Part shown: positions 8,841 to 51,521 of the stretch, one piece after another
Layout: each line of letters begins with the position of its first letter
Position numbering within the stretch: the stretch's first letter is position 1
Source of the DNA: an uncultured bacterium
Lineage (GTDB): Bacteria; Babelota; Babeliae; Babelales; Babelaceae
NCBI GenBank assembly: GCA_963848965.1
Contig: CAWKFG010000004.1
Coordinates: 1-64,000 of the forward strand
DNA: 64,000 nucleotides
Direction of reading: 5' to 3'
Position numbers and translations under genes: made by a program
The notes under the pieces: generated by a model
Database searches by the model: none
The model's input: the letters and a program-made list of their open reading frames with translations, nothing else
Told to the model about the DNA's origin: nothing

Positions 8841-8855
8841 GCCTCGCAGCAGGCG

Positions 8856-12335: not shown

Positions 12336-12357
12336 GTAACCGATCGTTGTTGGTTAC
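12336..12357. promoter_or_regulatory. Candidate operator GTAACC-N10-GGTTAC between divergent genes
   Basis: Perfect 6-bp inverted repeat in a short divergent intergenic region near an HxlR gene. Confidence 0.3.
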
Positions 12358-12426
12358 TTGTCGGTGGCCTTATTGCAACCGAAGCGCATCGTCCCTATTG
12401 TGCGAACCTCGGTTTATCATTTCCAT

Positions 12427-14600: not shown

Positions 14601-14603
14601 GTC

Positions 14604-17600: not shown

Positions 17601-18736
17601 GCCCAGGCCAAGTGGTGGCTGGACCGCGCCCGTCGGCGAGCAGCGCACCGACCTGGTCTCCTTCTACGACGGCGCCATCTCGGGGTCCGAGAGTGACCGG
17701 GAGTGGGCCGACGACGTCGCTGTGGTGACCGGGGCGGCTCCGGGCTCGATCGCCGGTGCTGTCGTGGCCGACCTGCTCCGCGGCGGTGCCACGGTCGTGG
17801 CGACCACCTCGCGGCTGGACAAGGAGCGCCTGGCGTTCTTCCGCGGCCTCTACCGCGACCACGCGTCGAACGGTGCCGCCCTGTGGGTGCTGCCGGCCAA
17901 CCTGGCGTCGTACGCCGACGTCGACTCGCTCGTCAAGTGGATCTCCTCCCCCGTGGTGGAGTCCGCCGGCGGCATGAAGACCGAGCTGCGCCCGGCAGCT
18001 CTCGCCGACGCTGGTCTTCCCGTTCGCGGCTCCGGCGGTGCAGGGCACGGCGGCCGACGCCGGTCCGCGCGCCGAGGTCGAGTTCCGCATCCTGCTCTGG
18101 GGCGTCGAGCGCCTCGTCGCCGGTCTGGCGGCACATGGTGCCGACCACAAGATCGGCCGACGGGTGCACGTCGTACTCCCGGGCTCGCCCAACCGCGGCC
18201 GCTTCGGTGGCGACGGTGCGTACGGCGAGGCCAAGGCAGCGTTCGACGCCTTCGTGCAGCGCTGGACGGCCGAGAAGGACTGGGCACAGCGGGTCTCGCT
18301 CGCCCACGCCCACATCGGCTGGGTCCGCGGCACCGGCCTGATGGGTCACAACGACCCGCTGGTCGACGCCGTCACCGCTGCCGGGGTCCGCACCTGGTCC
18401 CCGACCGAGATGGCCGCCGAGCTCCTCGAGCTGTGCAGCGTCGAGTCGCGGCAGGCCGCCGCCGGTGCGCCGATCGTGGCGGACCTGACCGGTGGTCTCG
18501 GCGAGGCCGACCTCGACCTCGCGGCCCTGGCTCGCGATGCTCGTGACGCCGCCGAGGCTGCACGGGCTCGACCGAGACGGACCGGGACCGACGACCAGCT
18601 GCTCGCGCTGACCCACCCTGCCGGGTGGGGCACCACGCAGCCCACGATGGACTGGCCGGAGATCAACACGTCCCTCGAGGACATGGTCGTGATCGTCGGC
18701 GCCGGCGAGGTCGGCCCGGTGGGCTCCTCGCGGACC
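14604..18736 (+). CDS. fas: Internal fragment of an actinobacterial type I fatty acid synthase (DH-MPT-ACP-KR-start of KS), many indels
   Basis: SGDHNPLH...PIVHGMWLS (DH), YAFPGQGIQ and GHSVGEY (MPT), DGVSSRRNQLLVDLG (ACP), VVTGAAPGSI and LPGSPNRG (KR), VVIVGAGEVGPVGSSRT (KS). Confidence 0.93.
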
Positions 18737-37970: not shown

Positions 37971-40133
37971 TCAAATTTTATTTGAAAAATTGTTATTTTC
38001 TACTAGCTCTTTTACTACCTTGCGCATCTTGGATCCATCATGAGGCATAATATACCCTTGACTTTCTAATTGGTCAATAAGACGAGCAGAACGATTATAA
38101 CCTATTCTAAAAGCACGTTGAAGAAGCGAGATAGAAACTTCATTTTTTTGCGAGATAAATGAAAGCACTTCTTCATAGAGATCGTCATCGCACTCTTCCT
38201 CTTGTACTGTCGTTGTCGTAAGCGGTATATATTCAACTGTTTGTTGTGCCTTAATATGCTTTACTACTGCCATAATTTCTTCTTCTGTTACATAAGCACC
38301 ATGCACACGACTTAAGGATCCTTTGGTATCTAAGAATAGCATATCTCCTTTTCCAAGAAGTTTTTCGGCACCTGTCATGTCAATAATAGTTCTTGAGTCA
38401 ACCTTTGACGTTACTTTGAATGCAACACGGCTTGGAAAATTTACCTTAATAAGCCCTGTAATAACATCAACAGACGGTCGTTGAGTTGCTGTAATCATAT
38501 GAATACCTGCAGCACGTGCCATTTGCGCAAGGCGCGCAATAAGATGCTCTATATCTTTACCAGCAGTCATCATAAGATCTGCAAGCTCGTCAATTATAAT
38601 GACAATAAATGGTAGAAGCTCTTCATTTTTTTCTTCAACAGAAGCATTATATTCAATTATATTGCGTACTCCTTTGGTAGCCATAAGAGTATACCGATCT
38701 TCCATCGCTTTAACTGCCCAGCGCAGTGCAGTAAGGGCACGTGCAGGATCTGTAATAATAGGAAATAACAGATGAGCACAATCAGTATAAGAAGAAAATT
38801 CAAGACGCTTCGGATCAATTAAGATGCAGCGCATCTCTTGTGGTGTTTTGCTACACAGTAAGCTCATAAACATCGCATGTAACCCTACAGATTTACCAGA
38901 ACCTGTAGAGCCTGCTACAAGAAGGTGGGGCATCGTTGCTAAATCTATAACAACGTTAGCTCCTAACGTATCTTTTCCTAAAATAAGGGGTAATGAACCT
39001 TTAAAATGTACAAAATGGTCACTGCGAATAAGTTCAGAAAATAGTACTGCTCTGCGCTTACTATGTGCAACTTCAAAACCGATAACCGAACGACCTGGAA
39101 TAGGTGCAATGATACGTAAACTCAATGCTTGAAGAGCAAGAGCAAGATCATCCTCTCGAGCGAGAATGGTACTAATTTTTGTATCAATAGACGGTTGATA
39201 TTCAAAAAGAGTAACGACAGGGCCATGAGTAATAGCAACTACTTTGCCTTCAATACCAAATCGTTCTAGTTTATGTTCAAGCGCACGTGCTTGCTGTTCA
39301 CTTTCAGCTTGTGCTGCTTTATCTACACTGCTTTCTTTTATTACTTTTCCTTCTGGATGTGGTAACTTATAACCACGTCGTAACTGCTCAGGAGTTTCAT
39401 CTTTTTCAACACGTTTTTCAACAAGCGGTACTACTTTCTTTTCTACTTGTATACTATATGCTGGATTTATATAGGTTCCCCAAAAAGGATCTTCGTAAAT
39501 AGTACTCTCTTGCGTATCTTTATCAGATAAGCCTGGAAGTATACGAGCGCTATATGCTCGTACTTTTTCATAACCATAGCTTACGAGTGCTTGTACCTTC
39601 TTAAGACCGTACATACAAAAAGAAAGGAGCGGTGCAAGATATACAATCCACGAAAATTGCATGAGTACAATAAGCATAGACCACAATGCTATAAAAAGAA
39701 ACATATCTGCCATCTTTTCATCAAGAAGAGCGAAGAGCATGCGAGAGCCTACAGTTCCTACTGCTCCTCCAGGACACACGCACGTAAAGAGCTCAAAGGA
39801 ATATCGGTGTGCTATTGTACTACATAGTGGTATACTTACCAGTAGAGTACCTATATGGCTTTTTTTAATAGAACCTCGAGGCCAAAGACATCGCATAGCA
39901 TAAAGACCGAACATTATACTCAAGAGCAAAGCAGAGCTTCCTAAAAAATAAAGCAAAAAGCCAGCGATACGCGCCTGCATATATTCAATACCGCCAAGAG
40001 CAGAAGATACCTCTGTAGTATCATAGAGCAATGAAGGAGTATAAGGATTATAGGTCACTAAAGAAAAAAGTAGTAAAAGAGCAAAGCTCATACTTATAGT
40101 AAAAGTAACCCACCGTTTTACAAGAGCAAACAT
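37971..40133 (-). CDS. ftsK: DNA translocase FtsK
   Basis: N-terminal TMs, PHLLVAGSTGSGKS, IIDELADLMM, ATQRPSVDVITG, gamma domain SISLLQR..IGYNRSAR. Confidence 0.97.
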   Translation of the reverse strand: MFALVKRWVTFTISMSFALLLLFSLVTYNPYTPSLLYDTTEVSSALGGIEYMQARIAGFLLYFLGSSALLLSIMFGLYAMRCLWPRGSIKKSHIGTLLVSIPLCSTIAHRYSFELFTCVCPGGAVGTVGSRMLFALLDEKMADMFLFIALWSMLIVLMQFSWIVYLAPLLSFCMYGLKKVQALVSYGYEKVRAYSARILPGLSDKDTQESTIYEDPFWGTYINPAYSIQVEKKVVPLVEKRVEKDETPEQLRRGYKLPHPEGKVIKESSVDKAAQAESEQQARALEHKLERFGIEGKVVAITHGPVVTLFEYQPSIDTKISTILAREDDLALALQALSLRIIAPIPGRSVIGFEVAHSKRRAVLFSELIRSDHFVHFKGSLPLILGKDTLGANVVIDLATMPHLLVAGSTGSGKSVGLHAMFMSLLCSKTPQEMRCILIDPKRLEFSSYTDCAHLLFPIITDPARALTALRWAVKAMEDRYTLMATKGVRNIIEYNASVEEKNEELLPFIVIIIDELADLMMTAGKDIEHLIARLAQMARAAGIHMITATQRPSVDVITGLIKVNFPSRVAFKVTSKVDSRTIIDMTGAEKLLGKGDMLFLDTKGSLSRVHGAYVTEEEIMAVVKHIKAQQTVEYIPLTTTTVQEEECDDDLYEEVLSFISQKNEVSISLLQRAFRIGYNRSARLIDQLESQGYIMPHDGSKMRKVVKELVENNNFSNKI

Positions 40134-40360
40134 AGTTCCCTCCTCTTTTTTGTTTCAGTGTACTGTATACTACTTCTTCAGCACAAGATCCTTTATGATA
40201 CTTCCACACTTTATGTCGCTGCTTACTAGAATAACGCCAGACGATTTAATAAAATATTCGGTTAAAAAAGAGCAGCACTACATTGAATTATTGACAAAAA
40301 AAAAATATATCCCATACTAAATTGTATATAAAAGCTTATAAACAATTAAAGGAGCACTTC

Positions 40361-40849
40361 ATGTATTATAATTTACTTATTGCTTATCTGTTACTCGGTA
40401 TCTCTGTTTTTGCGATGGATACTCAGTCAATGCTTTCAGAACCTCTGTTAGAAAATGACCATCTTGCTTTACAAGCTCCTATGCTTGGCAAAAAAGAGGA
40501 TATTGAAAAAAGGTTTATAGAAGCAGCAAAGCAAGGATCTATTGAATCCGTTGAATTTTATCTAAAGCGGCAAGTAAACGTTCATGCACGTCAAGATAAA
40601 GCATTACGTAGAGCAGCACGAAATGGACACCTGCAAACTGTTCTTCTTCTTTTACAGTATGGTGCGAATATACATGCAAAAAATAAGTATGCTCTACTCT
40701 GGGCACAAAAAAATAACCATCGAGCGGTTGCCGAACATTTGATTACTCTTAGCAGAGATGTACATGCGGTCCACAAGCAGCAATCTCAAGAAGTTTTTTC
40801 TTCACCATCAGAGAGTACATGCTGTTGCATCTCCTGCAATTTACTATAG
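40361..40849 (+). CDS. Secreted ankyrin-repeat protein ending in a Cys cluster and CaaX box
   Basis: Signal then FAMDT; ALRRAARNGHLQTVLLLLQYGANIHA; C-terminus TCCCISCNLL*. Confidence 0.85.
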   Translation: MYYNLLIAYLLLGISVFAMDTQSMLSEPLLENDHLALQAPMLGKKEDIEKRFIEAAKQGSIESVEFYLKRQVNVHARQDKALRRAARNGHLQTVLLLLQYGANIHAKNKYALLWAQKNNHRAVAEHLITLSRDVHAVHKQQSQEVFSSPSESTCCCISCNLL

Positions 40850-40851
40850 CG

Positions 40852-41610
40852 TCACCTATCTTTTATAAAAAGAGCGATACTCACAGGAATAAGCATGTAC
40901 CATGCAAAGGCAGTTGTAGTACCGTTCTTTAAAAGTATATATACAAAACCGAGCAGTTTATATGCAAGAAATGTAGAAATACCAAGAACTATGGTACCAG
41001 CAAGATTCCAAGAAATTTCCCTCTTTTGCTTAACATACATTTCAAATAATGCTTTTGTTACTGCGGCACCCATCAATGGCATCTGTATTGCAAGAGAGAA
41101 CAGAAATGATTCCTGTAGCGATAAATCTAACCAACAACCAGTTACAAATGTCGCAGCAAGCCGAGAAATGCCAGGAAGTAGAGCACATCCTTGAACGAAA
41201 CCTATAATACAAGCTTTTACAAACGTAATAGTATGAACTTCATAATAAGGGATCCACTTTACCGAAAATAACAAAAGACTGGTGATAAGGAATCCGAGCC
41301 ACAAAGGAAACTTATTACCTTTTACCACAAAATAGCATACAGCAGTAATACTAGCAGCACACATTGCCAACACTGCATATTGTACAAATTCCTCTAAAGA
41401 GGTCCAAGAGCTATAGTTATATAAAAAAATACTATTAATAAGCAGTGTAGGAATATGCATAAGATAGTCTACATTGTTTGATAGAGCTCTTTTTTGTAGT
41501 ATACCTAACATAAGCATCATATGACCAGAACTGCTTATAGGAAGTACTTCAAGGAGAACATGGAGTGCCCAAAGAATATATACAAAATTGTTCCACATAA
41601 TTTTTTTCAC
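40852..41610 (-). CDS. uppP: Undecaprenyl-diphosphate phosphatase (BacA/UppP)
   Basis: EVLPISSSGH, QGCALLPGISR, multiple TM segments. Confidence 0.88.
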   Translation of the reverse strand: MKKIMWNNFVYILWALHVLLEVLPISSSGHMMLMLGILQKRALSNNVDYLMHIPTLLINSIFLYNYSSWTSLEEFVQYAVLAMCAASITAVCYFVVKGNKFPLWLGFLITSLLLFSVKWIPYYEVHTITFVKACIIGFVQGCALLPGISRLAATFVTGCWLDLSLQESFLFSLAIQMPLMGAAVTKALFEMYVKQKREISWNLAGTIVLGISTFLAYKLLGFVYILLKNGTTTAFAWYMLIPVSIALFIKDR

Positions 41611-41700
41611 TCAGATAAAATAAAGCTTTACAAGAATGGTTCTTCAAGATTATACTGCGCATTGCTTTAATAGTCGAATTTTAACGCAAAGGAGTAGGAC

Positions 41701-43437
41701 ATGATGTCCCTATGTAAGCATATATGTATGGCATTCTTTCTTCTTGTACCGCTAACTGTGTATCCCCAACAAATACCGGAAGGTTGCGGCAGGATTCCCT
41801 TTAAAAAACATGTACGGTTGCCTAAAGAGCAGATCCGCAGTTCTGTATGTGGACCTCGTACAACATTTATTCCCCGGTCGCCAGGTTCCAATACAGCACG
41901 ACGTATAGCCGGATGGTACGAATATCTCCCTGGATGTGACGATCGTGTATGGGGGAACCTATCACTCACGGTTGAATATGCTCAATCATTTAAGTCAGAA
42001 CGTATCGCTCAGTACCTCTTTGGAAGTACCTGTCTCCATTTTTCAGGAAGTCAGGTACCAAACCGCTCGACAAGAGATCTTCTTGCAGACAACTTTGGGT
42101 TGCCTACTACCTTCGTAGGAACCGTGTGCTTTAAACCTAAAATTAAAAATGTTATTGTCGATCTTATGTTTCACATAGGACTTGATGAATGGCATGAAGG
42201 ACTCTATTTTAAAACCTATTTCCCTATTGTCAACGCTCGCTGGGATATAGGACTACACTGTAACGAAATAAACAATCAATCACGTACTACATTACCAACA
42301 TTCCCGCCATGCTATATGGATACTGCTACATCTCCTGCAGTACAAAACATTCGAGAAGCACTTTCAGGAACTGCTACCTTCGGTAACGAAGCAGTGCCCA
42401 TTATGTTCGGCGAATTTGCATGTGACCACGTACACAAAACTGGTATAGGAGATATCGAGATGATTCTCGGATGGAATACTCTTCTTACTCCCACTGCTCA
42501 TGCAGGGCCGTATATCATCACCGTGGTCCCTACAAGTAATAAGCCGAACGGCACCGTCGTGTTTGAACCTCTACTGGGTAACGGACATTTATGGGAACTC
42601 GGAGCAGGAGCTTCTGCACACTATACCTTCTTCCAAAGAGGATGTCATACTGCAGGCCTCTATTTTGAAGGGCATGTTACGCACCAATTTAAGGATTTTC
42701 AAGTACGATCATTTGATCTGAAAAAGCATGGACCACTCAGCCGCTATCTTCTTCTTAAAGAGTTCGACGAAAATAACCAATATAATAATAACCTCGTCAA
42801 TACTATAGACTTTGCTACTCGCTCAGCTCGCGTTGGGGGCAGCTTTAAAGTAGATGCTTCTCTTAAACTCGCTTATTTCCATGGTGGACTAGGCTTTGAT
42901 ATCGGTTACAATATCTATGCACGAAGCCGTGAATCGCTCTGCATAGATCGATTTCTCTTCCCTTCAGATTTCAACAATGACCGCCTAGGCATAAAAGGAA
43001 CTGAAGGAGTATGTGCACGTGTCTTTAATACAAACACTAATACACTGACCAACGATACAGTACCCCTTAACTCTACACAAAGTAATGCTACTATACGACA
43101 ACCAGGCACCGTCGATAATCCGCAACCTATTACCGACCTGGCGCCCGGCCTCGTTGCTATTACTTGGGATAGCCCACTCGATCGTACCCAACTTAAACAA
43201 GCATTCAACTCTAATCCGCCGGTCCTCATCTCAGTTAACGAGCTCAGCCGACGCAGCGGTGCAGTACCAGCACAGCTTACACACAAAATCTTTGCTCATC
43301 TGAGCTATGTAGCACTCGACTGCTGCTGGGAACCACAATTTGGCTTCGGTGCCGAAGCTGAATTCGATGGCCGCTCCAAGTTCCTCAGTAGCCTCAACCA
43401 ATGGGGCATCTGGGTCAAAGGCACCCTATCATACTGA
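41701..43437 (+). CDS. Cys-rich secreted putative outer-membrane beta-barrel protein, paralog 1
   Basis: Signal peptide; family motifs FIPRS.G.NTAR, LLADNFGL, RYLLLKEF, DIGYNIY, GIKGTEG, THKIF, NQWGIWVKGTLSY. Confidence 0.8.
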   Translation: MMSLCKHICMAFFLLVPLTVYPQQIPEGCGRIPFKKHVRLPKEQIRSSVCGPRTTFIPRSPGSNTARRIAGWYEYLPGCDDRVWGNLSLTVEYAQSFKSERIAQYLFGSTCLHFSGSQVPNRSTRDLLADNFGLPTTFVGTVCFKPKIKNVIVDLMFHIGLDEWHEGLYFKTYFPIVNARWDIGLHCNEINNQSRTTLPTFPPCYMDTATSPAVQNIREALSGTATFGNEAVPIMFGEFACDHVHKTGIGDIEMILGWNTLLTPTAHAGPYIITVVPTSNKPNGTVVFEPLLGNGHLWELGAGASAHYTFFQRGCHTAGLYFEGHVTHQFKDFQVRSFDLKKHGPLSRYLLLKEFDENNQYNNNLVNTIDFATRSARVGGSFKVDASLKLAYFHGGLGFDIGYNIYARSRESLCIDRFLFPSDFNNDRLGIKGTEGVCARVFNTNTNTLTNDTVPLNSTQSNATIRQPGTVDNPQPITDLAPGLVAITWDSPLDRTQLKQAFNSNPPVLISVNELSRRSGAVPAQLTHKIFAHLSYVALDCCWEPQFGFGAEAEFDGRSKFLSSLNQWGIWVKGTLSY

Positions 43438-43444
43438 TATCCAA

Positions 43445-43477
43445 AGAGCTCTGCACCCTGCAGAGCTCTCTTTCTTT
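43445..43477 (+). terminator. Rho-independent terminator
   Basis: AGAGCTCTGCA-CCC-TGCAGAGCTCT followed by CTTTCTTT. Confidence 0.8.
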
Positions 43478-43859
43478 AGGGGCGCTGCCCCTATAACCCC
43501 GCTGGGGTCTTAACCCCAGACCCCTTTTACTTTCGTTCTTTTTCTGCGTTAAAAAACGCTCAGCGTTTTTTAACAATAGCAGTCCCTTCGGGAATCTCCA
43601 TCAGAGGTGGAACACACCTCTGCTGATAACACTCTGTTTACAGAACTATTGTTGGTATGAAATACCAAAGAATAAAACGTAAGTCAGCAACGGGCAACCA
43701 GGGAGTTCCCCTGGTTGCTTGACTTCGCGGAGCGACTGCTATTGCAAAAAATCGGTACGATTTTTTGCTTTAAAAGACAAGCGAGGAGCTTTAGCTCTGA
43801 AGCTATAAAGTGGGTTGCAAGGGTGTGCCCTTGCCGGGGTCTTAGGGGCAGAGCCCCTA
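43477..43859. other. 383-bp pseudo-palindromic multi-hairpin non-coding element with 25-bp terminal inverted repeats
   Basis: TIRs TAGGGGCGCTGCCCCTATAACCCCG and (reverse complement) TAGGGGCTCTGCCCCTAAGACCCCG, 22/25; inner 11-bp IR 43574-43584/43734-43744; about ten local hairpins. Confidence 0.9.
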
Positions 43860-43966
43860 CCAGCTAGTTAAGAGAAAGCAAATTGGAGATTCACGTAAGA
43901 TCAGCAAAGTGGTAGACTAGGGCACGATACTCAAAAAGAAGCAACACCAACAAAGGGGGTCCGCTC

Positions 43967-45958
43967 ATGAAGCGCTCTGTTAGACATCTTGTCAGTGCAG
44001 TACTGATTGCAGGAACTATTCAAGCAGAAAGCCAGTTTGTCTTTGTGCGTGGCGACACAGTAGAGCCGTGTGGCGACTCTGTGTTGCCCTGTGTCGTGCA
44101 GGATATCTGCACAACGTGTGGTACCAAGTCGTGCATCTCCTGCGCAAAATGTACGTCGCAGTGTGCCCCTTGTAAGCGTCAGAATGGACTCTGTAATACA
44201 GGATGTTTTACCTGCAGCGTTTGCTCGACACGGCTGGGTATCGAAAGTAATGGCATCTGTGTCCAGTGCAATAAGGGTGGCAAATTACCAGATGGTAGGC
44301 TTGGGACCAAGACATGTAAGCAAGAGTGTACTACAACGTGCAATACTGTACGATCTATTTTTATTCCAAGGTCTGTAGGAGCTAATACAGCAAGAGAACT
44401 TGCAGGTTGGCAAGAGTTTATCCATAGATGGTCTCCTGGGAGAAATTATGTGACGGTTGCTCATAGTTTAGGTTATTCGAGGTCCTTTGATCCTGAACGT
44501 ATTGCACGGTACCTCTTTAGTGACTGTACACTGATTTTTTCTGGTAGCCAAGTCAGAGAGAGAAGAGATTGTGAGTTGCTGGCAGATAATTTTGGGTTAT
44601 CTCCGAGTTTTAGAGGACAACTGCGTGTGAGTCCGGTTATCGACAATGTCTTTTTTGATACACAGATCTTTGTAGGGCTTGACGAATGGCTCTGCGGTCT
44701 CTATGTAAGAGCCCATGCTCCGCTAGTGCATACGAGGTGGGACCTGAGGATGCACGAGAAGGTAGAAGAGCAAGAGTGTCCGCCCTTTCCTGCTTGTTAT
44801 ATGGGCCCTGATGAAGCAAAGGCAACTTGTAGCATTGTAAGGGCATTGAGTGGCACCTTTAGATTTGGAGATATGCAAGAACGATGGAAATTTGGCAAAT
44901 TTGCAGGTTGTGGCCTTTCAAAGACGGGGCTAGCAGATATTGATCTTATTGTAGGGTGGGACTTCTTAAAATGCGAGAATTATCATATAGGTATATTTGG
45001 ATTAGTGGTGGCACCAACGGGAAATAAGCCTAAAGGCGAATTTATTTTTGAGCCGGTTATAGGTAACGCAAAGCATGTTGAGCTGGGTGCTGGACTCTCG
45101 GGACATCTGGTTTTGTGGCAGGAAGGGCTTGATCAGTCATTGAGCATTTATCTTGAAGGTAATATAACGCATATGTTCAAAAATAGACAAGTACGTTCGT
45201 TTGATTTGTGTAGACAAGGGCCTTTAAGTAGATATTTGCTTTTAAAAGAATTTAGAAGAGAAGGTGAAGAGCTTATACCTACAGGAAGAATAATCAATGG
45301 TATCAACTTTGTAACTCGGGAAATAGAGACGTGTGTTCCAGTAAAAGGAGACGTAAGTGTAAAGCTTTCTTTGAGAATACCGTGCATCGCAATTGATCTA
45401 GGATATAATTTCTATGGCCATGCGCAAGAGCGGATAAAGTTTTGTAGAGCAGGAGGTGAAAGTACTTTTGGCATTAAAGGAACTGAAGGAACCTGTGCTC
45501 TTGAATATCAAACAGTGGGCACTCAACAACCATTGTCTTTTGGTTCTCTTGTAAAAAAGATACCGCTTAATGCGACACAGAGTAATGCAACTATTACAAG
45601 TGCAGGCACTACCGATAATGCAAAGAAAGTTGCAGTAAATTCTCCTGAAGATATTGCAGTAACTGCATTTAGTAGGCAAAGCGGCTTAATTGTAGGGCCT
45701 GATATTCAAGAAGCTTTTGCTTCCAATCCTCCGGTATTGCTCTCTGATAAAGATCTTAATAAAGATTCTGGTGCTGCTGGCCCAACAGCAACTCATAAGG
45801 TTTTTGGCTATATTGGTTATACGTTTGAAGATGCATGCAGATGGTATATCCCGTATGTTGGAGTAGGTGGTGAATTTGAAGTTGATGCACTTGCTTGTAA
45901 TGAACGAACGAGTCTTAATCAGTGGAGCTTGTGGATCAAAGGTGGTATCTCATTTTAG
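43967..45958 (+). CDS. Cys-rich putative outer-membrane protein, paralog 2, with a CxxC-rich N-terminal extension
   Basis: Same family motifs; ends NQWSLWIKGGISF. Confidence 0.8.
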   Translation: MKRSVRHLVSAVLIAGTIQAESQFVFVRGDTVEPCGDSVLPCVVQDICTTCGTKSCISCAKCTSQCAPCKRQNGLCNTGCFTCSVCSTRLGIESNGICVQCNKGGKLPDGRLGTKTCKQECTTTCNTVRSIFIPRSVGANTARELAGWQEFIHRWSPGRNYVTVAHSLGYSRSFDPERIARYLFSDCTLIFSGSQVRERRDCELLADNFGLSPSFRGQLRVSPVIDNVFFDTQIFVGLDEWLCGLYVRAHAPLVHTRWDLRMHEKVEEQECPPFPACYMGPDEAKATCSIVRALSGTFRFGDMQERWKFGKFAGCGLSKTGLADIDLIVGWDFLKCENYHIGIFGLVVAPTGNKPKGEFIFEPVIGNAKHVELGAGLSGHLVLWQEGLDQSLSIYLEGNITHMFKNRQVRSFDLCRQGPLSRYLLLKEFRREGEELIPTGRIINGINFVTREIETCVPVKGDVSVKLSLRIPCIAIDLGYNFYGHAQERIKFCRAGGESTFGIKGTEGTCALEYQTVGTQQPLSFGSLVKKIPLNATQSNATITSAGTTDNAKKVAVNSPEDIAVTAFSRQSGLIVGPDIQEAFASNPPVLLSDKDLNKDSGAAGPTATHKVFGYIGYTFEDACRWYIPYVGVGGEFEVDALACNERTSLNQWSLWIKGGISF

Positions 45959-46147
45959 AGAGGGGTTTATATAAACCCCCTCTGTTCTTGTTGACAATAA
46001 AGCTTAAACCGTATTTTTCGCTTCATCGGGCAGATTACTGTCTAGCATGTCTATGGATAAACTTTTATTCTTTACTCTTTAAAGCTTCTCTTCTTTTAAA
46101 AACCTGATAAGCTATCGGGAAGTATGAGGTTTAAAAAAGGAGAATTT

Positions 46148-48091
46148 ATGAAATACCTGTTACATATAATGCTCTGCTCTTCTCTTTTTACCAGCATGTA
46201 TGGTGCAGACAAAAAGAAGGTTGATGAGTGTAATCGTGCATGCCCTGAAGTTATTAACCGCCGGCTTCCTCGCAATAAAACGTGTGATGTTCGTTGCTCA
46301 AATCAGTGTTTTGATTGTGGCACTACCATTTTTCTCCCTCGTTCACAAGGAGCTAATACTGCACGTGAGCTTGTCGCTTGGCAAAAACAGTTGCATACCC
46401 CCTACTATGTAGAAAACTATGTAACACTTGCTGCAACTGCTGAATATACACGATCTTTCAAAGATTGCCAACTTGCACAACGGCTCTTTTGCACCAATTG
46501 TCTTACCTTCTCAGGTAGCCAAGCTGCAAACAGAAGAAATGAGCAAGAAATTATAGCAGATTATTTTGGGTTACCTACCGATTTTAGAGGAACTCTTTCT
46601 ATTAAGCCTTTTATAGAAAACTATATAGTTGATCTTAATATGTTTTTTGGCCTTAGTGAATGGCTTCCTGGTCTCTATCTGAGAGTTCATATGCCCATTG
46701 TACATACTCGGTGGAGTCTTGGCCTTGATGAATGTTTGCCATGTGCAGATAAATTTAGGGGTTCAAATAATTTTCCTCCTTGCTATATGTTTAGCAATAC
46801 AGCTCCGGACGTACCGGTATTTACGCCAGGCAATGTAACGTGTGCTATAGAAAATGCTGTTAATCCTCTGCAGGTTTTAAATAACCCTCTTCAGCCCCAA
46901 ACTTCTGGTGCTCTACAATTTACCAATAATAATTGTACAACGCAGAGTATTCGAGAAGCATTGAGCGGCAACTTTACGTTTGGTGACATGCAAGAACGTT
47001 GGAACTTTGGACGATTTGATTTCTGTCCTCGCAAAAAAACAGGTCTCGCTGACGTTGATATTATTCTGGGTCTTGATTTTTGGCAGTCTGATTTTGGCCA
47101 TTTTGGAGCGTTTGCACAGCTTGTCGTTCCTACTGGAAACAAGCCAAAATCAAAATTTATTTTTGAACCTATTATAGGAAATGGCCGCCATCTTGAATTA
47201 GGAGGTGGTGTGAGTATGCATTGGTCTCTGTTCAGTGATCATTGTACCGGAGGACGTAATTTGGGTCTTTATATTGAAGGAAATGTAACCCACTTGTTTA
47301 CTAATGACCAAATTCGTTCATTCGATTTTAGACGAAACGGTCTTTTAAGTAGGTATATACTTCTTAAAGAGTTTGATATTAATAATAGGTATCTTGGTAG
47401 AACTATTAATGCTATTAATTTTGCTACTCGTAATGCTGATGTCTCTATTCGATATAAGGTAGATTTTTCTGCTAAACTTGCATTTGCTCTAGGAGGATGG
47501 AATATAGATCTTGGTTATAACATTTATGCACGAGATCGTGAATGTGTTTGTATAAAAACGGAATGTCCGTGTGACATCGATCAACGACGCTTTGGCATTA
47601 AAGGAATTGAAGGAGTATGCTGTGACAACTTTATGATAATGGACGGTATGGTTATGCCAATACCACCCAATGAAAGCGCTCCTACAAAGTTAGTCAATGC
47701 AACGCAACCAGGTGCTACGATGTTTAATGCAGTACTGCCAACAAGCGGTCCAGTACCATCAGCTACTGCAGAAGAAGTATGTCTTGGTTTTAACAGTAAA
47801 GAGATTGGACAGCAGATGATCCCCGTTGCCGATCTTACTCCTGAAAATGGTTTCATTATTGCAAGAAATGAGCCAGTGCGGATTATTTCTTGTAGAGATT
47901 TAGATCCAAGCTCTGCAGCACAATGCAGTATCCTTACTCATAAAGTTTTTGGTCATTGGGGATATATATGGTACAACTCCTGTTACCATCCTCATTTAGG
48001 CATTGGTGCAGAATTTGAATTTAATGGAAAGAAACCGGAGAGTGGACTTAATCAATGGGGTGTATGGCTCAAAGGTGGTATAACTTTCTAA
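46148..48091 (+). CDS. Cys-rich putative outer-membrane protein, paralog 3
   Basis: RBS AGGAG; RSQGANTAREL; ends NQWGVWLKGGITF. Confidence 0.8.
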   Translation: MKYLLHIMLCSSLFTSMYGADKKKVDECNRACPEVINRRLPRNKTCDVRCSNQCFDCGTTIFLPRSQGANTARELVAWQKQLHTPYYVENYVTLAATAEYTRSFKDCQLAQRLFCTNCLTFSGSQAANRRNEQEIIADYFGLPTDFRGTLSIKPFIENYIVDLNMFFGLSEWLPGLYLRVHMPIVHTRWSLGLDECLPCADKFRGSNNFPPCYMFSNTAPDVPVFTPGNVTCAIENAVNPLQVLNNPLQPQTSGALQFTNNNCTTQSIREALSGNFTFGDMQERWNFGRFDFCPRKKTGLADVDIILGLDFWQSDFGHFGAFAQLVVPTGNKPKSKFIFEPIIGNGRHLELGGGVSMHWSLFSDHCTGGRNLGLYIEGNVTHLFTNDQIRSFDFRRNGLLSRYILLKEFDINNRYLGRTINAINFATRNADVSIRYKVDFSAKLAFALGGWNIDLGYNIYARDRECVCIKTECPCDIDQRRFGIKGIEGVCCDNFMIMDGMVMPIPPNESAPTKLVNATQPGATMFNAVLPTSGPVPSATAEEVCLGFNSKEIGQQMIPVADLTPENGFIIARNEPVRIISCRDLDPSSAAQCSILTHKVFGHWGYIWYNSCYHPHLGIGAEFEFNGKKPESGLNQWGVWLKGGITF

Positions 48092-48195
48092 ATACGTTAC
48101 TTTTGGTATTGCCATCTCATTATCTTTTGTCTACATTATATAAAACAATTAAGTGGCAGTTGTTTTTGAATCTTATAACAAAAAAAGGAGTACCT

Positions 48196-50031
48196 GTGAA
48201 ACGAGTTCTTTCTTCAATCGTGTATATCTCCTTATTGCTTAGTGCAACGGGAGCTACTGCACGAAATGAGAACAATACAAAGCGATGTAATGATAATTTT
48301 TGTGATGTTCGTACGGCAGTACACTTCCGTTCGCAAGGCGCTAATACTGCACGCGAACTCGTAGGATGGCAATGGGAGCTTAATAAACCTCTTATGTGCG
48401 AATATTATGGTTCTGGATATATCGCCTTTGAATACCAACGTTCATTTAAACCAGAACATCTTGCTCGCGCCTTTTTTGGGTCAACTGCACTGCGTTTTGC
48501 AGGAAGTTTAGTACCTGATAGGCAAAGCAATGAACTACTTGCAGAAAATTTTGGACTCTCAAGAACGTTCAGAGGAAGTATCCATTTCTGTCCGAGTATT
48601 GAGAACTTTATTGTAGATCTCGGTTTCTATTTAGGTCTTGATGCCTGGGTTCAAGGACTTTATTTTAGAGCACATGCTCCCTTTGTACATGCTCGATGGA
48701 AACTTGGAGCAACACAAGTACGTAATAACGAAAATGGTGCAGGAAATAGAAAACCAACATTTGCTCCATGTTTTGTAGGAGAAGAGAGCGATCAGGCCGC
48801 ACAAACTATTGAACAAGCGCTGAGTGGCAATTTCCTTTTTGGAGATTTAAAGACTCGGTGGTGTGCAGGCAAGTTTGATTTTTGTAAACGTACGAAAAAT
48901 GGACTTGCAGATATAGATCTTATTCTTGGTTATAATTTCATTAATGATGATTGTTATCATTTGGGCTTTTATGCACAAGCTGTTATTCCGACTGCCAAAA
49001 AGCGTAAAAATGAATTTGTGTTCGATCCTCTCATCGGTAACGGAAGACACTTTGAGCTTGGTGCAGGTATTTCCGCACATACAGTATTGTGGAGTGGCGA
49101 AGATGCTAATGTAGCACTATTCCTTGAAGGAAATATTACGCATATGTTTAAATCTCGTCAATGTCGCCTCTTTGACTTGAGAAATCACGGTCCATTCAGT
49201 CGGTATCTGCTACTAAAAGAGTTTGATAGTAATGGAACTCGTCTTATTTATAATGGTAATCTTTTAAGCGCTACATGCTTTACTTCACGCGATGTTAATG
49301 TAAGTGTAGATGTAAAAGCAGATTTTTCTTTAAAACTTGCTTACCGGTGGTGCGGCTTCGGTTTTGATATAGGATATAATATCTATGGTCATAGTGCAGA
49401 GACTATTGATCGTCGGTGTGACGGATGTCCAACTGGCATCGATAAAAGACGATTTGGTATCAAAGGTACTGAAAATACTTGTTGCTTCAATTTCCCTGTA
49501 GGCATAGTTTCTGAAAATGATCAAGAAATTCCTACAATATTTCCTGAAGGAGCACCTTTTGAAGTTCCTGTACCTGAAGGATGTCCTGCTGTAGCAAGTC
49601 CTGTAGTAGTAAGAAAAGTAGCAAATAATAGTACGCAAGCAGATGCAACAGCATTTAGACCAGGAGCTACCGTAACTCCTACTATTGCCGCAAGTGCATG
49701 TACTGTATGCTTAACAAGAGCTGACAATGTTATTGCTCCTATAGCAGTTGCAGATCTTACTCCTGAAAATGGATTTATTGTAACGAATACTACACGACCA
49801 ACTATTCTTACTACAAATGACCTTAACTTATGCTCTGGTGAAGCTCTTTCAGTGCTTACTCATAAAGTCTTTGGTCATATATGTTATACTTGGATGGACG
49901 AATGCGGTTGGAATCCACAACTTGGTCTTGGTGCCGAAGTTGAATTTGATGGAAAGCGGCACCGTAATGGTACAGAACGAAATGGTTTAAACCAATGGGG
50001 TATCTGGATAAAAGGTGTTATCTCCTTCTAA
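48196..50031 (+). CDS. Cys-rich putative outer-membrane protein, paralog 4
   Basis: GTG start after AGGAG; RSQGANTAREL; ends NQWGIWIKGVISF. Confidence 0.8.
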   Translation: MKRVLSSIVYISLLLSATGATARNENNTKRCNDNFCDVRTAVHFRSQGANTARELVGWQWELNKPLMCEYYGSGYIAFEYQRSFKPEHLARAFFGSTALRFAGSLVPDRQSNELLAENFGLSRTFRGSIHFCPSIENFIVDLGFYLGLDAWVQGLYFRAHAPFVHARWKLGATQVRNNENGAGNRKPTFAPCFVGEESDQAAQTIEQALSGNFLFGDLKTRWCAGKFDFCKRTKNGLADIDLILGYNFINDDCYHLGFYAQAVIPTAKKRKNEFVFDPLIGNGRHFELGAGISAHTVLWSGEDANVALFLEGNITHMFKSRQCRLFDLRNHGPFSRYLLLKEFDSNGTRLIYNGNLLSATCFTSRDVNVSVDVKADFSLKLAYRWCGFGFDIGYNIYGHSAETIDRRCDGCPTGIDKRRFGIKGTENTCCFNFPVGIVSENDQEIPTIFPEGAPFEVPVPEGCPAVASPVVVRKVANNSTQADATAFRPGATVTPTIAASACTVCLTRADNVIAPIAVADLTPENGFIVTNTTRPTILTTNDLNLCSGEALSVLTHKVFGHICYTWMDECGWNPQLGLGAEVEFDGKRHRNGTERNGLNQWGIWIKGVISF

Positions 50032-50036
50032 AGTAC

Positions 50037-50064
50037 AAGGCTCCTCATATGAGGGGCCTTTTTT
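50037..50064 (+). terminator. Rho-independent terminator
   Basis: AAGGCTCCTC-ATAT-GAGGGGCCTTTTTT. Confidence 0.8.
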
Positions 50065-50136
50065 CTATTCATTTTTCTTAAAATACAAGGTATGCTAAAA
50101 AAGCAGTATTTTATTATTACCTACTAAAGGGGGACC

Positions 50137-51189
50137 ATGAACGCTATTCTTTTAAGTTCTCTAGCTTTATCTATCACTTTTTTATGCAGCGCTATGCATG
50201 ATGAATCATCTTCTGGAGAAAGTCATATACAAAGTACTCCACCACGTCATACAAGACGTAAAAGCTTAGATTTTTCACCAAGTGCAAGCCCTTCGTCGCC
50301 TGAGATGCAAGAGCAAGATGTTTTTGAACTCAACTCAAATCTTATACTCAATACTGATCTTCGAAGAAGAGTATATAGCACTATTACTCAAACGAGTGAT
50401 CTACAGTTATCAAGAGCTCTTTCTGACCTTCTTAAAGAGCCCGTAGAAGAACAAGATCAAGATCAAGATTTTGTACAAGACCTTCAATCAGTACTTAAAA
50501 ATAACAAGTCTACATTTAGCAGTGCATATAAACCAAGTAGCCCCCTTAGAAAAGGACTTCATACAGCACTAAGCACAGAAAAACCTCAAGTTACATCCCA
50601 ACGAAGAAAAAAACCATCTGCTGCACATAAAAGAAGCATTTCTTTTGCACCTCATATAGAAGAGCCATCTGTTAGGCCAGAGCCAACACAACCGCTTGTG
50701 CACGAAAAAAAGCCGAGTGAGCCTGCAACACAGTCTCCTTCAATTGCCGCTATACTTAAAGATGCAGTCAAGCCTGCAGAATCACAAAGCACAGAAGTAA
50801 AGCAAAATACACCGGTCACTTCTCAAACTATACCAGCTCAAGCTGCAGAAACGCTACCTGAAATTAAGATAACCGCTCCAACAGAACCGGTTGCACCTGT
50901 AGGCTTAAATCCTACTCTAGCGCAAGAGGCTGCAGAAGTAGCACAGCATGCACATGTTGCTCATACAAATGAAGCTTCTGACCACATAAAAGCTGATCAT
51001 GCAACAGAATCTTCTGCACCGCATGTTCAATCACAAGAACCTCAAGAAGATAAGCATACTGCTAAAGATACTAAGCCCCGCACATGGCTTACCAAAAAAA
51101 GTGTTATAACACTTGGACTTGTAGGCACACTACTTGGCATAGTCGCATATAAGAAATTTTCTGCACAGCAGCACAAAGAAAGAGCATAA
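50137..51189 (+). CDS. Secreted low-complexity protein with a C-terminal TM anchor
   Basis: Signal then SAMHD; S/P/E-rich body; VITLGLVGTLLGIVAYKKF near the C-terminus. Confidence 0.75.
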   Translation: MNAILLSSLALSITFLCSAMHDESSSGESHIQSTPPRHTRRKSLDFSPSASPSSPEMQEQDVFELNSNLILNTDLRRRVYSTITQTSDLQLSRALSDLLKEPVEEQDQDQDFVQDLQSVLKNNKSTFSSAYKPSSPLRKGLHTALSTEKPQVTSQRRKKPSAAHKRSISFAPHIEEPSVRPEPTQPLVHEKKPSEPATQSPSIAAILKDAVKPAESQSTEVKQNTPVTSQTIPAQAAETLPEIKITAPTEPVAPVGLNPTLAQEAAEVAQHAHVAHTNEASDHIKADHATESSAPHVQSQEPQEDKHTAKDTKPRTWLTKKSVITLGLVGTLLGIVAYKKFSAQQHKERA

Positions 51190-51214
51190 AAAAAGAGGCC
51201 ATACGGCCTCTTTT
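51190..51214. terminator. Bidirectional terminator
   Basis: AAAAAGAGGCC-ATAC-GGCCTCTTTT. Confidence 0.85.
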
Positions 51215-51459
51215 TAGTGTTGCAACGTCTGTACGTAATTGATTACTTGGTCTACGGTAGAAAGCTTTTCAGCTTCCTCGTCCTTTATCTCAATACCAAA
51301 AGCTTCTTCGAGCTCCATAATGATCTTAACGCGATCAAGAGAATCTGCTCCAAGACCTTCGAGCGTCGCATCTGGTGCTATTTTTTCTTTGTTAATACGC
51401 AGCTGCTCTGCAATAATAGCACGTACTTTAGATGCAGTTTCACTGTGATCTAATGCCAT
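51214..51459 (-). CDS. acpP: Acyl carrier protein
   Basis: LGADSLDRV..IMELEEAFGIEI. Confidence 0.95.
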   Translation of the reverse strand: MALDHSETASKVRAIIAEQLRINKEKIAPDATLEGLGADSLDRVKIIMELEEAFGIEIKDEEAEKLSTVDQVINYVQTLQH

Positions 51460-51521
51460 ATCGTTATTCCTTATTTAAAACATACATTGCTAGTAAAGAG
51501 TATCATATTTAAGTACAAGAA

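Follow-up and report, generated by a model that had tools for sequence, protein, structure and literature searches.

Mirror-image, strand-specific compositional halos flank copies of a hairpin-rich palindromic repeat in a Babelaceae genome

The locus studied herein raises the question of why the strand composition of a bacterial chromosome should flip, in mirror image, around a palindrome set between two paralogous genes that are read in the same direction. It lies at 43.7 kb of a window of 64,000 nucleotides (the whole stretch of DNA analysed) from contig CAWKFG010000004.1 of assembly GCA_963848965.1, an uncultured member of the Babelaceae. The sequence comes from one assembly only, of metagenome type, and four of its contig ends bear foreign high-GC caps. 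Hand counts given in an earlier note on this DNA proved exact (49 G and 96 C at 43021-43320; 82 G and 50 C at 44401-44700; 41 G and 45 C at 42421-42600; 49 G and 23 C at 44881-45060). The features of the locus are as follows.

41701..43437, + strand: paralog 1, a predicted outer-membrane beta-barrel protein, pointing toward the element
42200..43458: left halo, + strand C-rich and outward - strand G-rich, GC raised; 3' part of paralog 1
43445..43469, + strand: terminator-like hairpin directly past the paralog 1 stop codon (I6)
43459..43877, no strand: imperfect palindromic repeat element, ~420 bp, GC 0.48 (nhmmer bounds, blastn copies)
43477..43501: left terminal inverted repeat, hairpin AGGGGCnnnGCCCCT, 25 nt, 88% complementary to 43835-43859 (pair I2)
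43548..43574: perfect 13-bp hairpin of an A-run and a T-run, the left arm "A-type" module (I4, copy alignment)
43599..43718: asymmetric core, with hairpins at 43599-43625 (I11) and 43694-43718 (I12)
43744..43768: perfect 11-bp hairpin of an A-run and a T-run, the right arm "B-type" module (I8, copy alignment)
43835..43859: right terminal inverted repeat (pair I2)
43878..45900: right halo, outward + strand G-rich, GC raised near the element; most of paralog 2
43967..45958, + strand: paralog 2, 40% identical to paralog 1, pointing away from the element
46124-48091 and 48055-50031, + strand: paralogs 3 and 4, beyond the halo and used as internal baselines

Our results confirm that the strand-skew flip is real and mirror-symmetric, with the palindrome at its centre. 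In 300-bp windows, + strand skew goes from -0.30 at 42950-43249 up to +0.33 at 45200-45499, changing sign between 43400-43699 (-0.157) and 43550-43849 (+0.087), and GC climbs to 0.53, versus ~0.37-0.40 in the surroundings. The right-side skew maximum lies 1-1.5 kb out and does not adjoin the element. Taking S as the skew over 1 kb to the right less that over 1 kb to the left, the locus reaches 0.324, which ranks within the highest 0.21% of the 33,886 positions scored in the genome. The outward strand had been described as G/T-rich on both sides; the G-richness holds and the T-richness hardly does, pooled AT skew being only -0.02 to -0.05, a slight value explained by the loss of A.

The inflection in third-position skew on which the earlier note had made its reading depend is present at the element, with values of -0.37 to -0.81 in the final five windows (60 codons each) of paralog 1 and mostly +0.07 to +0.64 in the windows of paralog 2. 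Within 1250 bp, NNY codons end in C in 55/121 cases and NNR codons in G in 8/47 in the left halo, and in the right halo the counts are 39/77 for G in NNR and 24/103 for C in NNY. The third-position skew of paralog 1 (-0.41) is in the normal range for + strand genes of its replichore; its oddities are a raised GC3 and a gradient, and the gene with the wrong sign is paralog 2. Amino-acid composition, which had been named as a possible cause, does not account for the skew: at the 128 alignment columns with an identical residue in all four paralogs, the third bases still differ (G10/C31 in paralog 1, G28/C11 in paralog 2, G9/C20 in paralog 3, and G14/C19 in paralog 4). The family of paralog 1 is large and Dependentiae-associated, without a Pfam or NCBIfam model, and its assignment as an outer-membrane beta-barrel comes from modelling (AlphaFold2 pLDDT 89.5; best Foldseek matches to FapF, a COG4313 channel, FadL, autotransporter barrels, and porins). 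Paralog 2 has an additional Cys-rich N-terminal stretch.

A chromosomal origin or terminus of the ordinary kind at 43.7 kb would agree with the local minus-to-plus flip and with an FtsK gene 3.5 kb away. This candidate is refuted, and we regard it as next to impossible. The cumulative skew of the window's contig falls monotonically across all 873 kb, with no contig-wide flip, and the local flip reverts by 50 kb, where genes change orientation. Further, dnaA is on another contig (C1:473 kb), no DnaA box, allowing one mismatch to the consensus TTATCCACA, occurs in the nine copies of the element and the 100 bp on either side of them, and the same flip is found at the eight further copies. The earlier opinion that a canonical oriC fits poorly is thus upheld.

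Those copies carry the argument beyond a single locus. In the 1.7-Mb genome, nhmmer finds the element at nine loci, seven with full copies and two with right-half copies. S is above zero at all nine, six of the seven full copies lie within the top 0.35% of positions, and copies supply the four highest S peaks genome-wide and six of the top eight. The polarity of the halo is identical on contig C4, whose + strand is C-rich throughout, and on C1, whose + strand is G-rich, and the halo is therefore independent of replication direction. At the half copies, the armed sides have a halo (28/71 and 32/69), whereas the armless sides do not rise above baseline (21/103 and 9/82). A halo is lacking at two of the 14 full-copy flanks (C1:159240 left and C1:353743 left), and flanks with away-reading genes are less uniform, four of nine being near baseline. 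The genes that flank the copies are mostly unrelated to one another, the only related ones being members of the outer-membrane family; the halo also flanks a second Glu-tRNA-synthetase-family gene and an FtsH homologue, and further halo neighbours, judged from their translations without a family scan, are FtsY-, TolB-, and ATPase-like. The halo is thus found at almost every copy, regardless of neighbouring genes or chromosomal replication direction. A role in diversifying surface proteins, as had been proposed, is not supported; the halo is not specific to them and lies beside these other, housekeeping genes as well.

The element itself is a hairpin-rich, MITE-like palindromic repeat, with inverted repeats at its termini, a pair of A-tract/T-tract hairpins, and a further pair of hairpins in the core. 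Its fold as single-stranded DNA has an energy of -114.3 kcal/mol (z -15.3 versus shuffles), compensatory changes are found in 26 of its 124 consensus pairs among the seven copies compared, and both core hairpins are preserved by such changes (alignment columns 165-185 and 256-284). The strict form of the terminal hairpin had all 10 of its listed matches inside element loci, compared with 18/37 for a relaxed pattern. The arms are themselves G-rich outward in all seven full copies. An Rfam search returned no family for the element, and neither a partner transposase with matching ends nor a RAYT was found.

Copies lie 6-40 bp past the stop codons of upstream genes, and the left-arm A-run/T-run hairpin resembles a bidirectional terminator; these terminator-like hairpins, together with that position, place the element in transcriptional punctuation. 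One reading, which we consider unlikely, is that the arms drive strong outward transcripts, running antisense into the upstream gene, and that template and non-template strands mutate or are repaired differently, perhaps with R-loops, as a bacterial counterpart of eukaryotic GC-skewed bidirectional promoters. The sign fits, since the RNA-like strand would be G-rich on both sides, GC is elevated around the centre, and all seven full copies have at least one side with a gene transcribed away from the element. However, no sigma-70-type promoter was found in the window copy (a consensus that may not be this phylum's), and a scan of seven copies found no conserved outward promoter in the arms, the hits that score 9/12 or better lying in unique flanks. 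A Mfd/TRCF domain was not found in the genome, and RNase HI is present. The halos also show no clustering of G, with G3 runs rarer than in shuffles and no G4 motifs.

The strand specificity of the halo emerges most clearly at two-fold synonymous sites (NNY and NNR) within 1250 bp of copies, with observed values set against expected ones. In genes that read toward the element, C/(C+T) at NNY is 249/577 = 0.432 versus 0.242 expected (p 5e-26), while G/(A+G) at NNR is 0.303 versus 0.286 (not significant). In genes that read away, G/(A+G) at NNR is 256/647 = 0.396 versus 0.273 (p 2e-8), while C/(C+T) at NNY is 0.212 versus 0.246 (not significant). A single transition axis is therefore shifted, the A<->G balance of the outward strand toward G, with the complementary classes at baseline; four-fold sites agree. 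At the level of genes, toward-flanks reach at least 0.39 in 6/7, a level attained by 1.8% of the 3' ends of 996 control genes (binomial 2e-10), and away-flanks at least 0.41 in 5/9, versus 5.2% of 1210 controls (4e-5), both cut-offs having been picked after the data were seen. Toward-reading genes show an effect no weaker than away-reading ones (odds ratios about 2.4 and 1.75), and an outward transcript there would be antisense to essential genes; this equal or stronger effect is predicted by symmetric repair synthesis and not by transcription of the downstream gene.

The shift also decays with distance. At outward A/G sites, the G fraction is 0.50 at 0-500 bp, 0.38 at 500-1000 bp, 0.33 at 1000-1250 bp, and about 0.30 at 1250-2500 bp, and farther out it is mostly 0.25-0.29 (one bin 0.35). 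The T/C class is approximately flat at 0.2-0.28 in most bins, the exceptions being 0.33 within the closest 250 bp and 0.31 in a single distant bin. The shift is maximal in the first 500 bp and falls to about 0.28 over roughly 1.5-2.5 kb. No neighbour-base motif marks the shifted sites, a point against a sequence-specific deaminase, and they lack the 5'NAC3' hotspot context of Escherichia coli. The earlier expectation of both C>T and A>G on displaced DNA is borne out in its A<->G part only; synonymous sites give no sign of additional C>T on the outward strand, which also counts against divergent transcription, and GC rises. The present-day composition fits more A>G or, equally, fewer G>A on that strand.

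The first option of the earlier note was that DNA synthesis or strand displacement starts bidirectionally here; on this view, the copies would be secondary, abortive starts (hairpin-, R-loop-, or nick-primed strand displacement) whose short outward leading strands leave a miniature origin skew. The polarity is that of an origin, with G-rich strands leaving the centre, arms included; the mirror symmetry is independent of chromosomal replication direction, and the extreme folding potential recalls single-strand initiation signals. Nevertheless, we judge this improbable, more so than divergent transcription. Besides lacking DnaA boxes, the copies are GC-rich (0.47-0.52), with no AT-rich unwinding region and no adjoining initiator gene. 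The replication skew of the chromosome combines low C with high G (leading-strand four-fold sites, C 0.094/G 0.112 versus C 0.143/G 0.077), whereas the halo alters G only, and a range of ~1 kb demands synthesis that is nearly always aborted and yet inherited.

It is also conceivable that no local mutation process operates, and that the pattern reflects codon or amino-acid preference (for example, in highly expressed genes), prior skew at the sites where the element inserted, flanks exchanged for foreign DNA, or a fault of the assembly. The raised GC3 of the flanking genes could accompany expression-linked codon bias, a strand-specific C excess occurs in a few genes far from copies (for instance, the group II intron maturases and C1:631383-633074), and the assembly does have foreign high-GC contig ends. 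Even taken jointly, these versions seem to us very improbable. The two-fold and four-fold synonymous shift follows orientation to the element, not the gene, and decays inside genes; the L21 gene that adjoins one copy has baseline composition; the neighbours, only some of them identified (by search or by reading translations), are mostly unrelated; and flips this large are otherwise rare, the genome's top four being copies. Reading frames run uninterrupted from halo to normal sequence, and a synonymous-site difference of 10-20% far exceeds sequencing error. Finally, no such gradient is seen in GltX orthologues from 11 genomes of the family or in FtsH orthologues from nine. The element was found in none of the 30 relatives searched, and a whole-genome scan of the nearest relative showed no comparable repeat at its top skew flips.

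Association with the element, strand specificity, decay with distance, and absence from related-genus orthologues are established, and they give strong support to the earlier suggestion that the element drives local mutagenesis. We consider an element-anchored, strand-asymmetric mutation bias as such to be probable. One result goes against it: when amino-acid changes in paralog 1 were polarised using a homologue with 87% identity and an outgroup with 69%, the 24 on this genome's branch included seven A>G, three T>C, one G>A, and eight ambiguous changes, contrary to the strand-specific expectation for a toward-reading gene, although these changes are few, selected, and non-synonymous.

As to how such a bias might arise, our favoured explanation, held tentatively and at somewhat less than even odds, is an outward A:T>G:C bias that arises when the broken palindrome is mended by repair synthesis. 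Repeats that form hairpins or cruciforms are prone to nicking and breakage. If the palindrome were recurrently nicked or broken, the 5'-ended strand could be resected for ~1 kb on either side and resynthesised, with DNA synthesis heading outward. Should this refill synthesis evade mismatch correction, misinsertions of dGTP opposite template T would be fixed as A>G on the new outward strand (T>C on its complement), and many rounds over evolutionary time would yield mirror-image G enrichment and higher GC. Against this version, the genome encodes MutS, MutL, UDG, and endonuclease V; mismatch repair is hence not missing. Neither an SbcD C-terminal domain nor a Y-family polymerase was found in this 88.7% complete genome.

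Compared with known systems, the halo shares mirror symmetry and outward G-rich strands with the GC-skew switch at bacterial origins, but it spans kilobases rather than megabases, occurs at nine sites rather than one, lacks DnaA boxes, dnaA, and an AT-rich region, and raises only G, with C unchanged and GC content higher. Eukaryotic CpG-island bidirectional promoters are GC-skewed and form R-loops, and they resemble the halo in raised GC, a central flip of skew sign, and a scale of ~1 kb; the differences are that this is a bacterium, that no promoter was found in the element, that G is unclustered, and that the halo extends, antisense, into the genes upstream. Among bacterial MITEs and composite palindromic repeats are Correia/NEMIS, ERIC, REP/BIME, and the Rickettsia palindromic elements. 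Like them, the element is small, non-coding, dispersed, and intergenic, carries terminal inverted repeats along with stacked hairpins, and often lies just past a stop codon; unlike most, it is larger (~420 bp), and no transposase or RAYT partner was found. We know of no report that such repeats are flanked by compositional halos, and a literature search for one found none; the pattern looks like a local, strand-specific mutation process that is new for bacteria. In Foster et al. (bioRxiv 10.1101/346874), uncorrected polymerase errors in E. coli are mainly strand-biased A:T>G:C transitions, the same dominance as in our halos, although that mismatch-repair-defective spectrum is genome-wide and concentrated at 5'NAC3', whereas ours is local to a repeat, without that context, and in a genome with MutS and MutL. 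In Saini et al. 2013 (PMC3681665), yeast inverted repeats raise mutation in reporters as far as 8 kb away on either side, by a route of breakage and resection followed by faulty synthesis, matching our locus in its long hairpin- or cruciform-forming inverted repeat and its two-sided, kilobase-scale effect. That system, as described there, is a eukaryotic laboratory assay dependent on Pol zeta and Sae2; the present one, for which no candidate nuclease or error-prone polymerase was found, is a bacterial evolutionary footprint with a strand-specific A:T>G:C signature, a range of ~1-1.5 kb, and nine natural loci.

On the + strand of the window, GC skew reverses across an intergenic palindrome that lies between two genes read in the same direction. 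Specifically, in 300-bp windows, the skew falls to a minimum of -0.30 at 42950-43249, crosses zero between 43400-43699 and 43550-43849, and reaches a maximum of +0.33 at 45200-45499, with a GC peak of 0.53 in a surrounding region of 0.37-0.40; it is negative again at about 50 kb, where the genes switch to the - strand. The intergenic stretch, 43438-43966, contains a palindrome, imperfect and about 420 bp long (hereafter, the element), and we use "halo" for the flanking sequence in which the outward strand, running 5' to 3' away from the element, is enriched in G.

Features of the element and its neighbouring genes in the window
41701-43437, + strand: paralog 1, flanking ORF, read toward the element
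43477-43501 and 43835-43859: terminal inverted repeats of 25 nt, 88% complementary, each with the hairpin AGGGGCnnnGCCCCT
43548-43574 and 43744-43768: perfect A-run/T-run hairpins, one per arm
Asymmetric core: two further hairpins
43967-45958, + strand: paralog 2, flanking ORF, read away from the element, 40% identity with paralog 1
46124-48091 and 48055-50031, + strand: paralogs 3 and 4, downstream of paralog 2

At the 128 alignment positions with an identical residue in all four paralogs, the third bases include G10/C31 in paralog 1, G28/C11 in paralog 2, G9/C20 in paralog 3, and G14/C19 in paralog 4. The contrast is thus not due to amino-acid composition, because it is found at same-residue positions. 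An earlier note, made from the sequence alone, had proposed a mirrored skew halo here; its four hand counts of G and C were all exact on recount, the third-position skew inflection that it called for is present at the element, and amino-acid composition fails as an explanation. Four-fold-site skew is usually negative in + strand genes of this replichore (-0.07 to -0.57 in most), and paralog 1, at -0.42, is odd mainly in its raised GC3 and its gradient, while paralog 2, at +0.17, has the wrong sign for its replichore.

The paralog family has no model in Pfam or NCBIfam. Paralog 1 had 254 homologues at E <= 0.001 among 8,000 candidates scored, two of the named ones being from 'Candidatus Dependentiae bacterium', and Foldseek matched an AlphaFold2 model of it, made with 36 sequences (pLDDT 89.5, pTM 0.85), to FapF (E 5e-11), a COG4313 channel, FadL, autotransporter barrels, and porins. 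Two homologues, encoded on contigs of 9.3 kb and 165 kb, are respectively 87% and 69% identical to paralog 1. The paralogs end in SY, SF, TF, and SF, and the flanking ones are predicted to form closed beta-barrels of the outer-membrane type with a C-terminal aromatic residue. Because the model matches outer-membrane barrels, the earlier description of these neighbours as surface proteins is reasonable; a dedicated role in diversifying them finds no support, because the halo is not specific to surface-protein genes. At its N-terminus, paralog 2 has ~90 additional residues (43967-44350), very Cys-rich and with CxxC-like spacing, that paralogs 1, 3, and 4 do not have. The longest paralog 4 ORF begins 37 bases ahead of the paralog 3 stop (48055-48091), and its real start is probably further downstream.

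The element belongs to a family. A blastn search combined with an nhmmer profile placed nine loci on two contigs of the genome (C4, which begins with the window, and C1), comprising seven full copies and two right halves.

Copies of the element (contig and position)
C4:43459, 268394, 477223, 671087 and C1:159240, 305423, 353743: full copies
C4:472154, 551528: right-half copies

The seven full copies are about 410-440 bp long, the other copies share 72-85% identity with the window copy over long alignments, and the terminal inverted repeats are conserved in all seven, as in miniature inverted-repeat transposable elements (MITEs). Copies typically sit 6-40 bp past one gene's stop codon and 100-370 bp ahead of the next gene. 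All 10 listed matches to the strict terminal hairpin form fall in the nine loci, and the ends often read T|TAGGGG...CCCCT|A, with no consistent duplication beyond a possible TA. As single-stranded DNA, the element folds at -114.3 kcal/mol (z -15.3), equalled by 0/100 shuffles, and 26/124 base pairs of the consensus structure are kept through changes on both sides; the arms are of two module types. Its length and inverted symmetry thus allow hairpin or cruciform formation, as in palindrome-induced mutagenesis. A gathering-threshold Rfam run on the window placed no family on the element and only three tRNAs elsewhere, and an E-value run gave five weak matches, all far below threshold. In this genome, which is 88.7% complete, no autonomous partner with matching ends was found, and PF01797 (the Y1/HUH REP-associated transposase, RAYT, that goes with REP/BIME repeats) had 0 matches. 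An IS630-type transposase at C4:128-131 kb is split by a group II intron and has no terminal-hairpin match nearby. A 21-codon frame in the core of the window copy was rejected as a gene, being stopped early in the other copies on inspection by eye.

The family appears confined to this genome among those covered. It was found in 0/30 relatives, and the genome that carries it is a single metagenome-type assembly. Exact-pattern scans, which diverged relatives of the element would escape, gave only chance matches: one among public genome contigs, on an archaeal contig that has the hairpin alone in common with the element, and, for two patterns among public metagenome contigs, 0 and 3, of which two fit the element model at the pattern only and the third not at all. 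Among sequencing runs, none of RNA is listed for this sequence; two soil DNA runs contain 6-8% of sampled words and, over 40000-51500, seven short pieces (136-256 bases), none crossing the element. At four contig ends, the sequence is capped by DNA of 55-74% GC (window 1-18600, C1:1-9000, C5:1-5000, and the last ~7000 of C5); the window cap ends in an abrupt GC change at about 18.5-19 kb and carries tRNA-Val and tRNA-Asp. The caps resemble either foreign DNA or chimeric junctions with a different organism, and they were left out of the C4 baselines.

The halo recurs at nearly every copy of the element. With S taken as right-hand skew less left-hand skew, each measured over 1 kb, S is positive at 9/9 loci, six of the seven full copies rank in the top 0.35% of 33,886 positions, and the four highest S peaks of the genome, and six of the top eight, are copies. 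The genes beside the copies mostly bear no relation to one another: among them are a second Glu-tRNA-synthetase-family gene and an FtsH homologue, both identified through orthologues, and others that, judged from their translations, appear FtsY-, TolB-, L21-, permease-, MutS-, and ATPase-like. Across the 14 pooled flanks of full copies, read on the outward strand, G drops from 0.247 over the initial 250 bp to about 0.19 past 1.5 kb, A is reduced (0.28-0.29 vs 0.316), C is slightly reduced, T is unchanged, and GC declines with distance from 0.42 to 0.37. The element arms have the same outward polarity in 7/7 full copies, and the halo has the same sign on C4 and C1, despite their opposite replication skews. 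The halo is independent of gene orientation and replication direction.

Synonymous sites, which are free of protein constraint, show the same element-centred shift. At four-fold sites in the first 500 bp, genes read toward a copy have C of 0.25-0.32 (baseline 0.094 or 0.143, by replication strand), and genes read away have G of 0.17-0.18 (baseline 0.112 or 0.077); the baseline is regained by 1.5 kb in the former and by ~2.5 kb in the latter. At two-fold sites within 1250 bp, C/(C+T) in NNY codons of toward-genes is 249/577 = 0.432 vs an expected 0.242 (p 5e-26), while G/(A+G) in their NNR codons is 0.303 vs 0.286 (not significant); conversely, in away-genes, G/(A+G) is 256/647 = 0.396 vs 0.273 (p 2e-8) and C/(C+T) is 0.212 vs 0.246 (not significant). 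The sole displaced balance is that between A and G on the outward strand, not a symmetric enrichment in GC. By 250-bp bins, the G fraction at outward A/G sites runs 0.50, 0.50, 0.38, 0.38, and 0.33, then about 0.30, and is mostly 0.25-0.29 past 2.5 kb (0.35 in one bin), and the shift fades over about 1-1.5 kb; the other site class stays near 0.2-0.28 in most bins, the exceptions being 0.33 in the nearest bin and 0.31 in a distant one.

Single flanks gave 0.39-0.52 in 6/7 toward-flanks and 0.41-0.51 in 5/9 away-flanks, and the armless sides of the half copies were at or below baseline (21/103 and 9/82). Against controls drawn from the 3' or 5' 1.25 kb of all genes >5 kb from any copy, with the C1 and C5 caps also excluded, the flank counts have binomial probabilities of 2e-10 (toward) and 4e-5 (away), at thresholds picked after the data had been seen. 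The four-fold, two-fold, single-flank, and distance-decay evidence together make it very improbable that the pattern has a non-mutational explanation. Amino-acid composition or expression-linked codon bias was rejected as the main cause, the shift being synonymous and dependent on orientation and distance. Neighbouring bases had little effect (odds ratios 1.25-3.9, no motif), and a sequence-specific deaminase was set aside for lack of such a preference. Far from any copy, three genes (C1:631383-633074, C1:366675-367553, and C1:134478-135668) have a strand-specific NNY C excess (0.47-0.54) with normal NNR G.

By comparison with other genomes, the pattern is derived. The GltX-family gene that precedes the C4:268394 copy has, over its final 150-250 codons, a GC3 of 0.40-0.53 and a third-position skew between -0.33 and -0.69, whereas means for 11 orthologues lie near +0.1. 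The shift reaches codon positions 1 and 2: over codons 360-420, their skew is -0.40 (orthologue range -0.30 to +0.03, n=11), and their GC is likewise past the 11-orthologue range within the 60-codon stretch closest to the peak of the halo. For FtsH, which follows the C1:305423 copy, third-position skew over the first 375 codons is between +0.12 and +0.43, compared with -0.06 to +0.13 in nine orthologues. A whole-genome scan of the nearest relative, G010, whose FtsH is 74% identical and which was the only relative scanned, revealed no palindrome-with-halo family among the top flips. There, 5/13 S peaks of at least 0.30 lie at the ends of a 2,564-bp repeat with nine 100% identical copies, presumably an ordinary, recently active mobile element, and the remaining peaks have no repeat in common; the same phenomenon was thus rejected for G010. 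Copies of this repeat occur in nine places (e.g., C2 of G010, 1286491-1289054), one of them flanked on both sides by internally repetitive stretches of ~1.1-1.5 kb (74-87% self-matches, offsets of roughly 100 bp).

A mirrored skew flip resembles the mark of a replication origin, a reading that the earlier note had thought a poor fit and that is now discarded, for a terminus as well. The genome (1.73 Mb, 5 contigs, 37% GC) has no chromosome-scale skew switch here, as cumulative skew along the 873-kb C4 declines monotonically between position 1 and 860 kb, and the genome's single Bac_DnaA match is on C1 (473371-473850). Within one mismatch, TTATCCACA, which we take to be the DnaA-box consensus, occurs 0 times in any of the nine copies +/- 100 bp (genome background 0.27 per kb), and the GC of the element, 0.47-0.52 vs 0.37 for the genome, is not that of an AT-rich unwinding region. 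Abortive bidirectional initiation at the copies would give a like polarity; it is nevertheless improbable, given the absent origin features and a spectrum unlike the genome's own replication skew. An FtsK gene lies at 37971-40133, 3.5 kb to the left of the flip; this proximity seems a coincidence, because the window is tens of kb or more away from the likely terminus, placed by skew at about 570 kb on C1.

One potential explanation, possible if short of probable, is that the family acts as fixed bidirectional "mutation lamps", with outward synthesis rewriting the ~1 kb flanks by strand-specific A>G and thereby altering codons and residues of essential genes. Each copy would repeatedly set off outward DNA synthesis, through repair of a break or nick or through abortive initiation. 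In the version we favour, the palindrome would be recurrently broken or nicked, and the 5'-ended strand would then be resected and refilled outward; at a two-ended break, the strand remade on each side would be the one running away from the break, and misinsertion of dGTP opposite template T would yield A>G on it. Everything here beyond the element-centred outward G shift is what we infer, and in composition alone, more A>G is not separable from fewer G>A. One study gives A:T>G:C as the uncorrected polymerase error of E. coli (10.1101/346874), and another describes mutation on both flanks of yeast inverted repeats through resection and faulty synthesis (PMC3681665). A two-flank rise that falls with distance, as expected of palindrome mutagenesis, is visible here solely in base composition. 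Against this reading, the halo shift lacks the NAC context of E. coli. Among the 24 amino-acid changes of paralog 1 polarised, with the 87%- and 69%-identical homologues, on the branch of this genome, coding-strand A>G numbers 7 vs 3 for T>C; these changes are few and non-synonymous only, and the T>C excess expected there is not seen.

Outward transcription from the element, or R-loops formed by it, would give the observed sign. However, the window copy has no promoter-like site and the arms no conserved outward promoter, extra C>T is absent, Mfd was not found, and the effect is similar or larger in toward-genes, for which reason a symmetric DNA process fits better than transcription of the downstream gene. 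R-loops are also opposed by a GG ratio of 0.85 (0.9 genome-wide), G3 runs below those of shuffles, and 0 G4 motifs in the halos, and we regard this explanation as unlikely. Selection for G-quadruplexes or G clusters is likewise not seen in the halos.

The repair synthesis we favour would depend on a hairpin nuclease, on resection, and on synthesis that is error-prone or uncorrected. Against it, an SbcD_C domain and a Y-family polymerase were not found in the 88.7% complete genome, which does have MutS, MutL, UDG, endonuclease V, and RNase HI; these five led us to reject repair-gene loss as a simple cause. Pol I is present as well. The genome also holds ten MutS_V-domain ORFs in 1.7 Mb, namely a canonical one at 270 bits plus nine divergent ones at 70-110 bits in frames of 685-1193 aa (ORFs in the set include C4:668998-671052 and C4:117256-117816); one of the ten adjoins the C4:671087 copy and the rest lie away from copies. 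Reverse-transcriptase mutagenesis was rejected, both RT genes being group II intron maturases far from all copies. Of these two introns (C4:126500-132000 and C4:443000-449000), one appears to split the IS630-type transposase (HTH_33 + DDE_3) and the other a YhcG/DUF1016 PDDEXK nuclease gene; NNY C is very high in both RT genes (0.61-0.77).

A small repeat seems to exert a strand-specific mutation bias of its own on the adjoining kilobase, nine times in one genome. If true, this would be a new cause of kilobase-scale heterogeneity in skew and GC, another reason for scans of skew and GC to return false "origin-like" or "island-like" signals, and a natural read-out of hairpin-DNA processing in a cell not culturable alone. 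Further, selfish repeats would be able to alter adjacent proteins, as the first and second codon positions of the GltX-family gene suggest. The usual explanations of local base composition in bacteria are the direction of replication, the strand of the gene, expression, and foreign origin, and a full-text search of a limited collection turned up no account of halos in composition or skew near bacterial repeats. The element itself is ordinary in kind, a palindrome resembling a MITE. What seems new, to the best of our knowledge, is the mirrored, strand-specific footprint on the genes beside it, which, if the mutational reading holds, would be the first natural genome-encoded record in bacteria of local mutagenesis induced by secondary structure.
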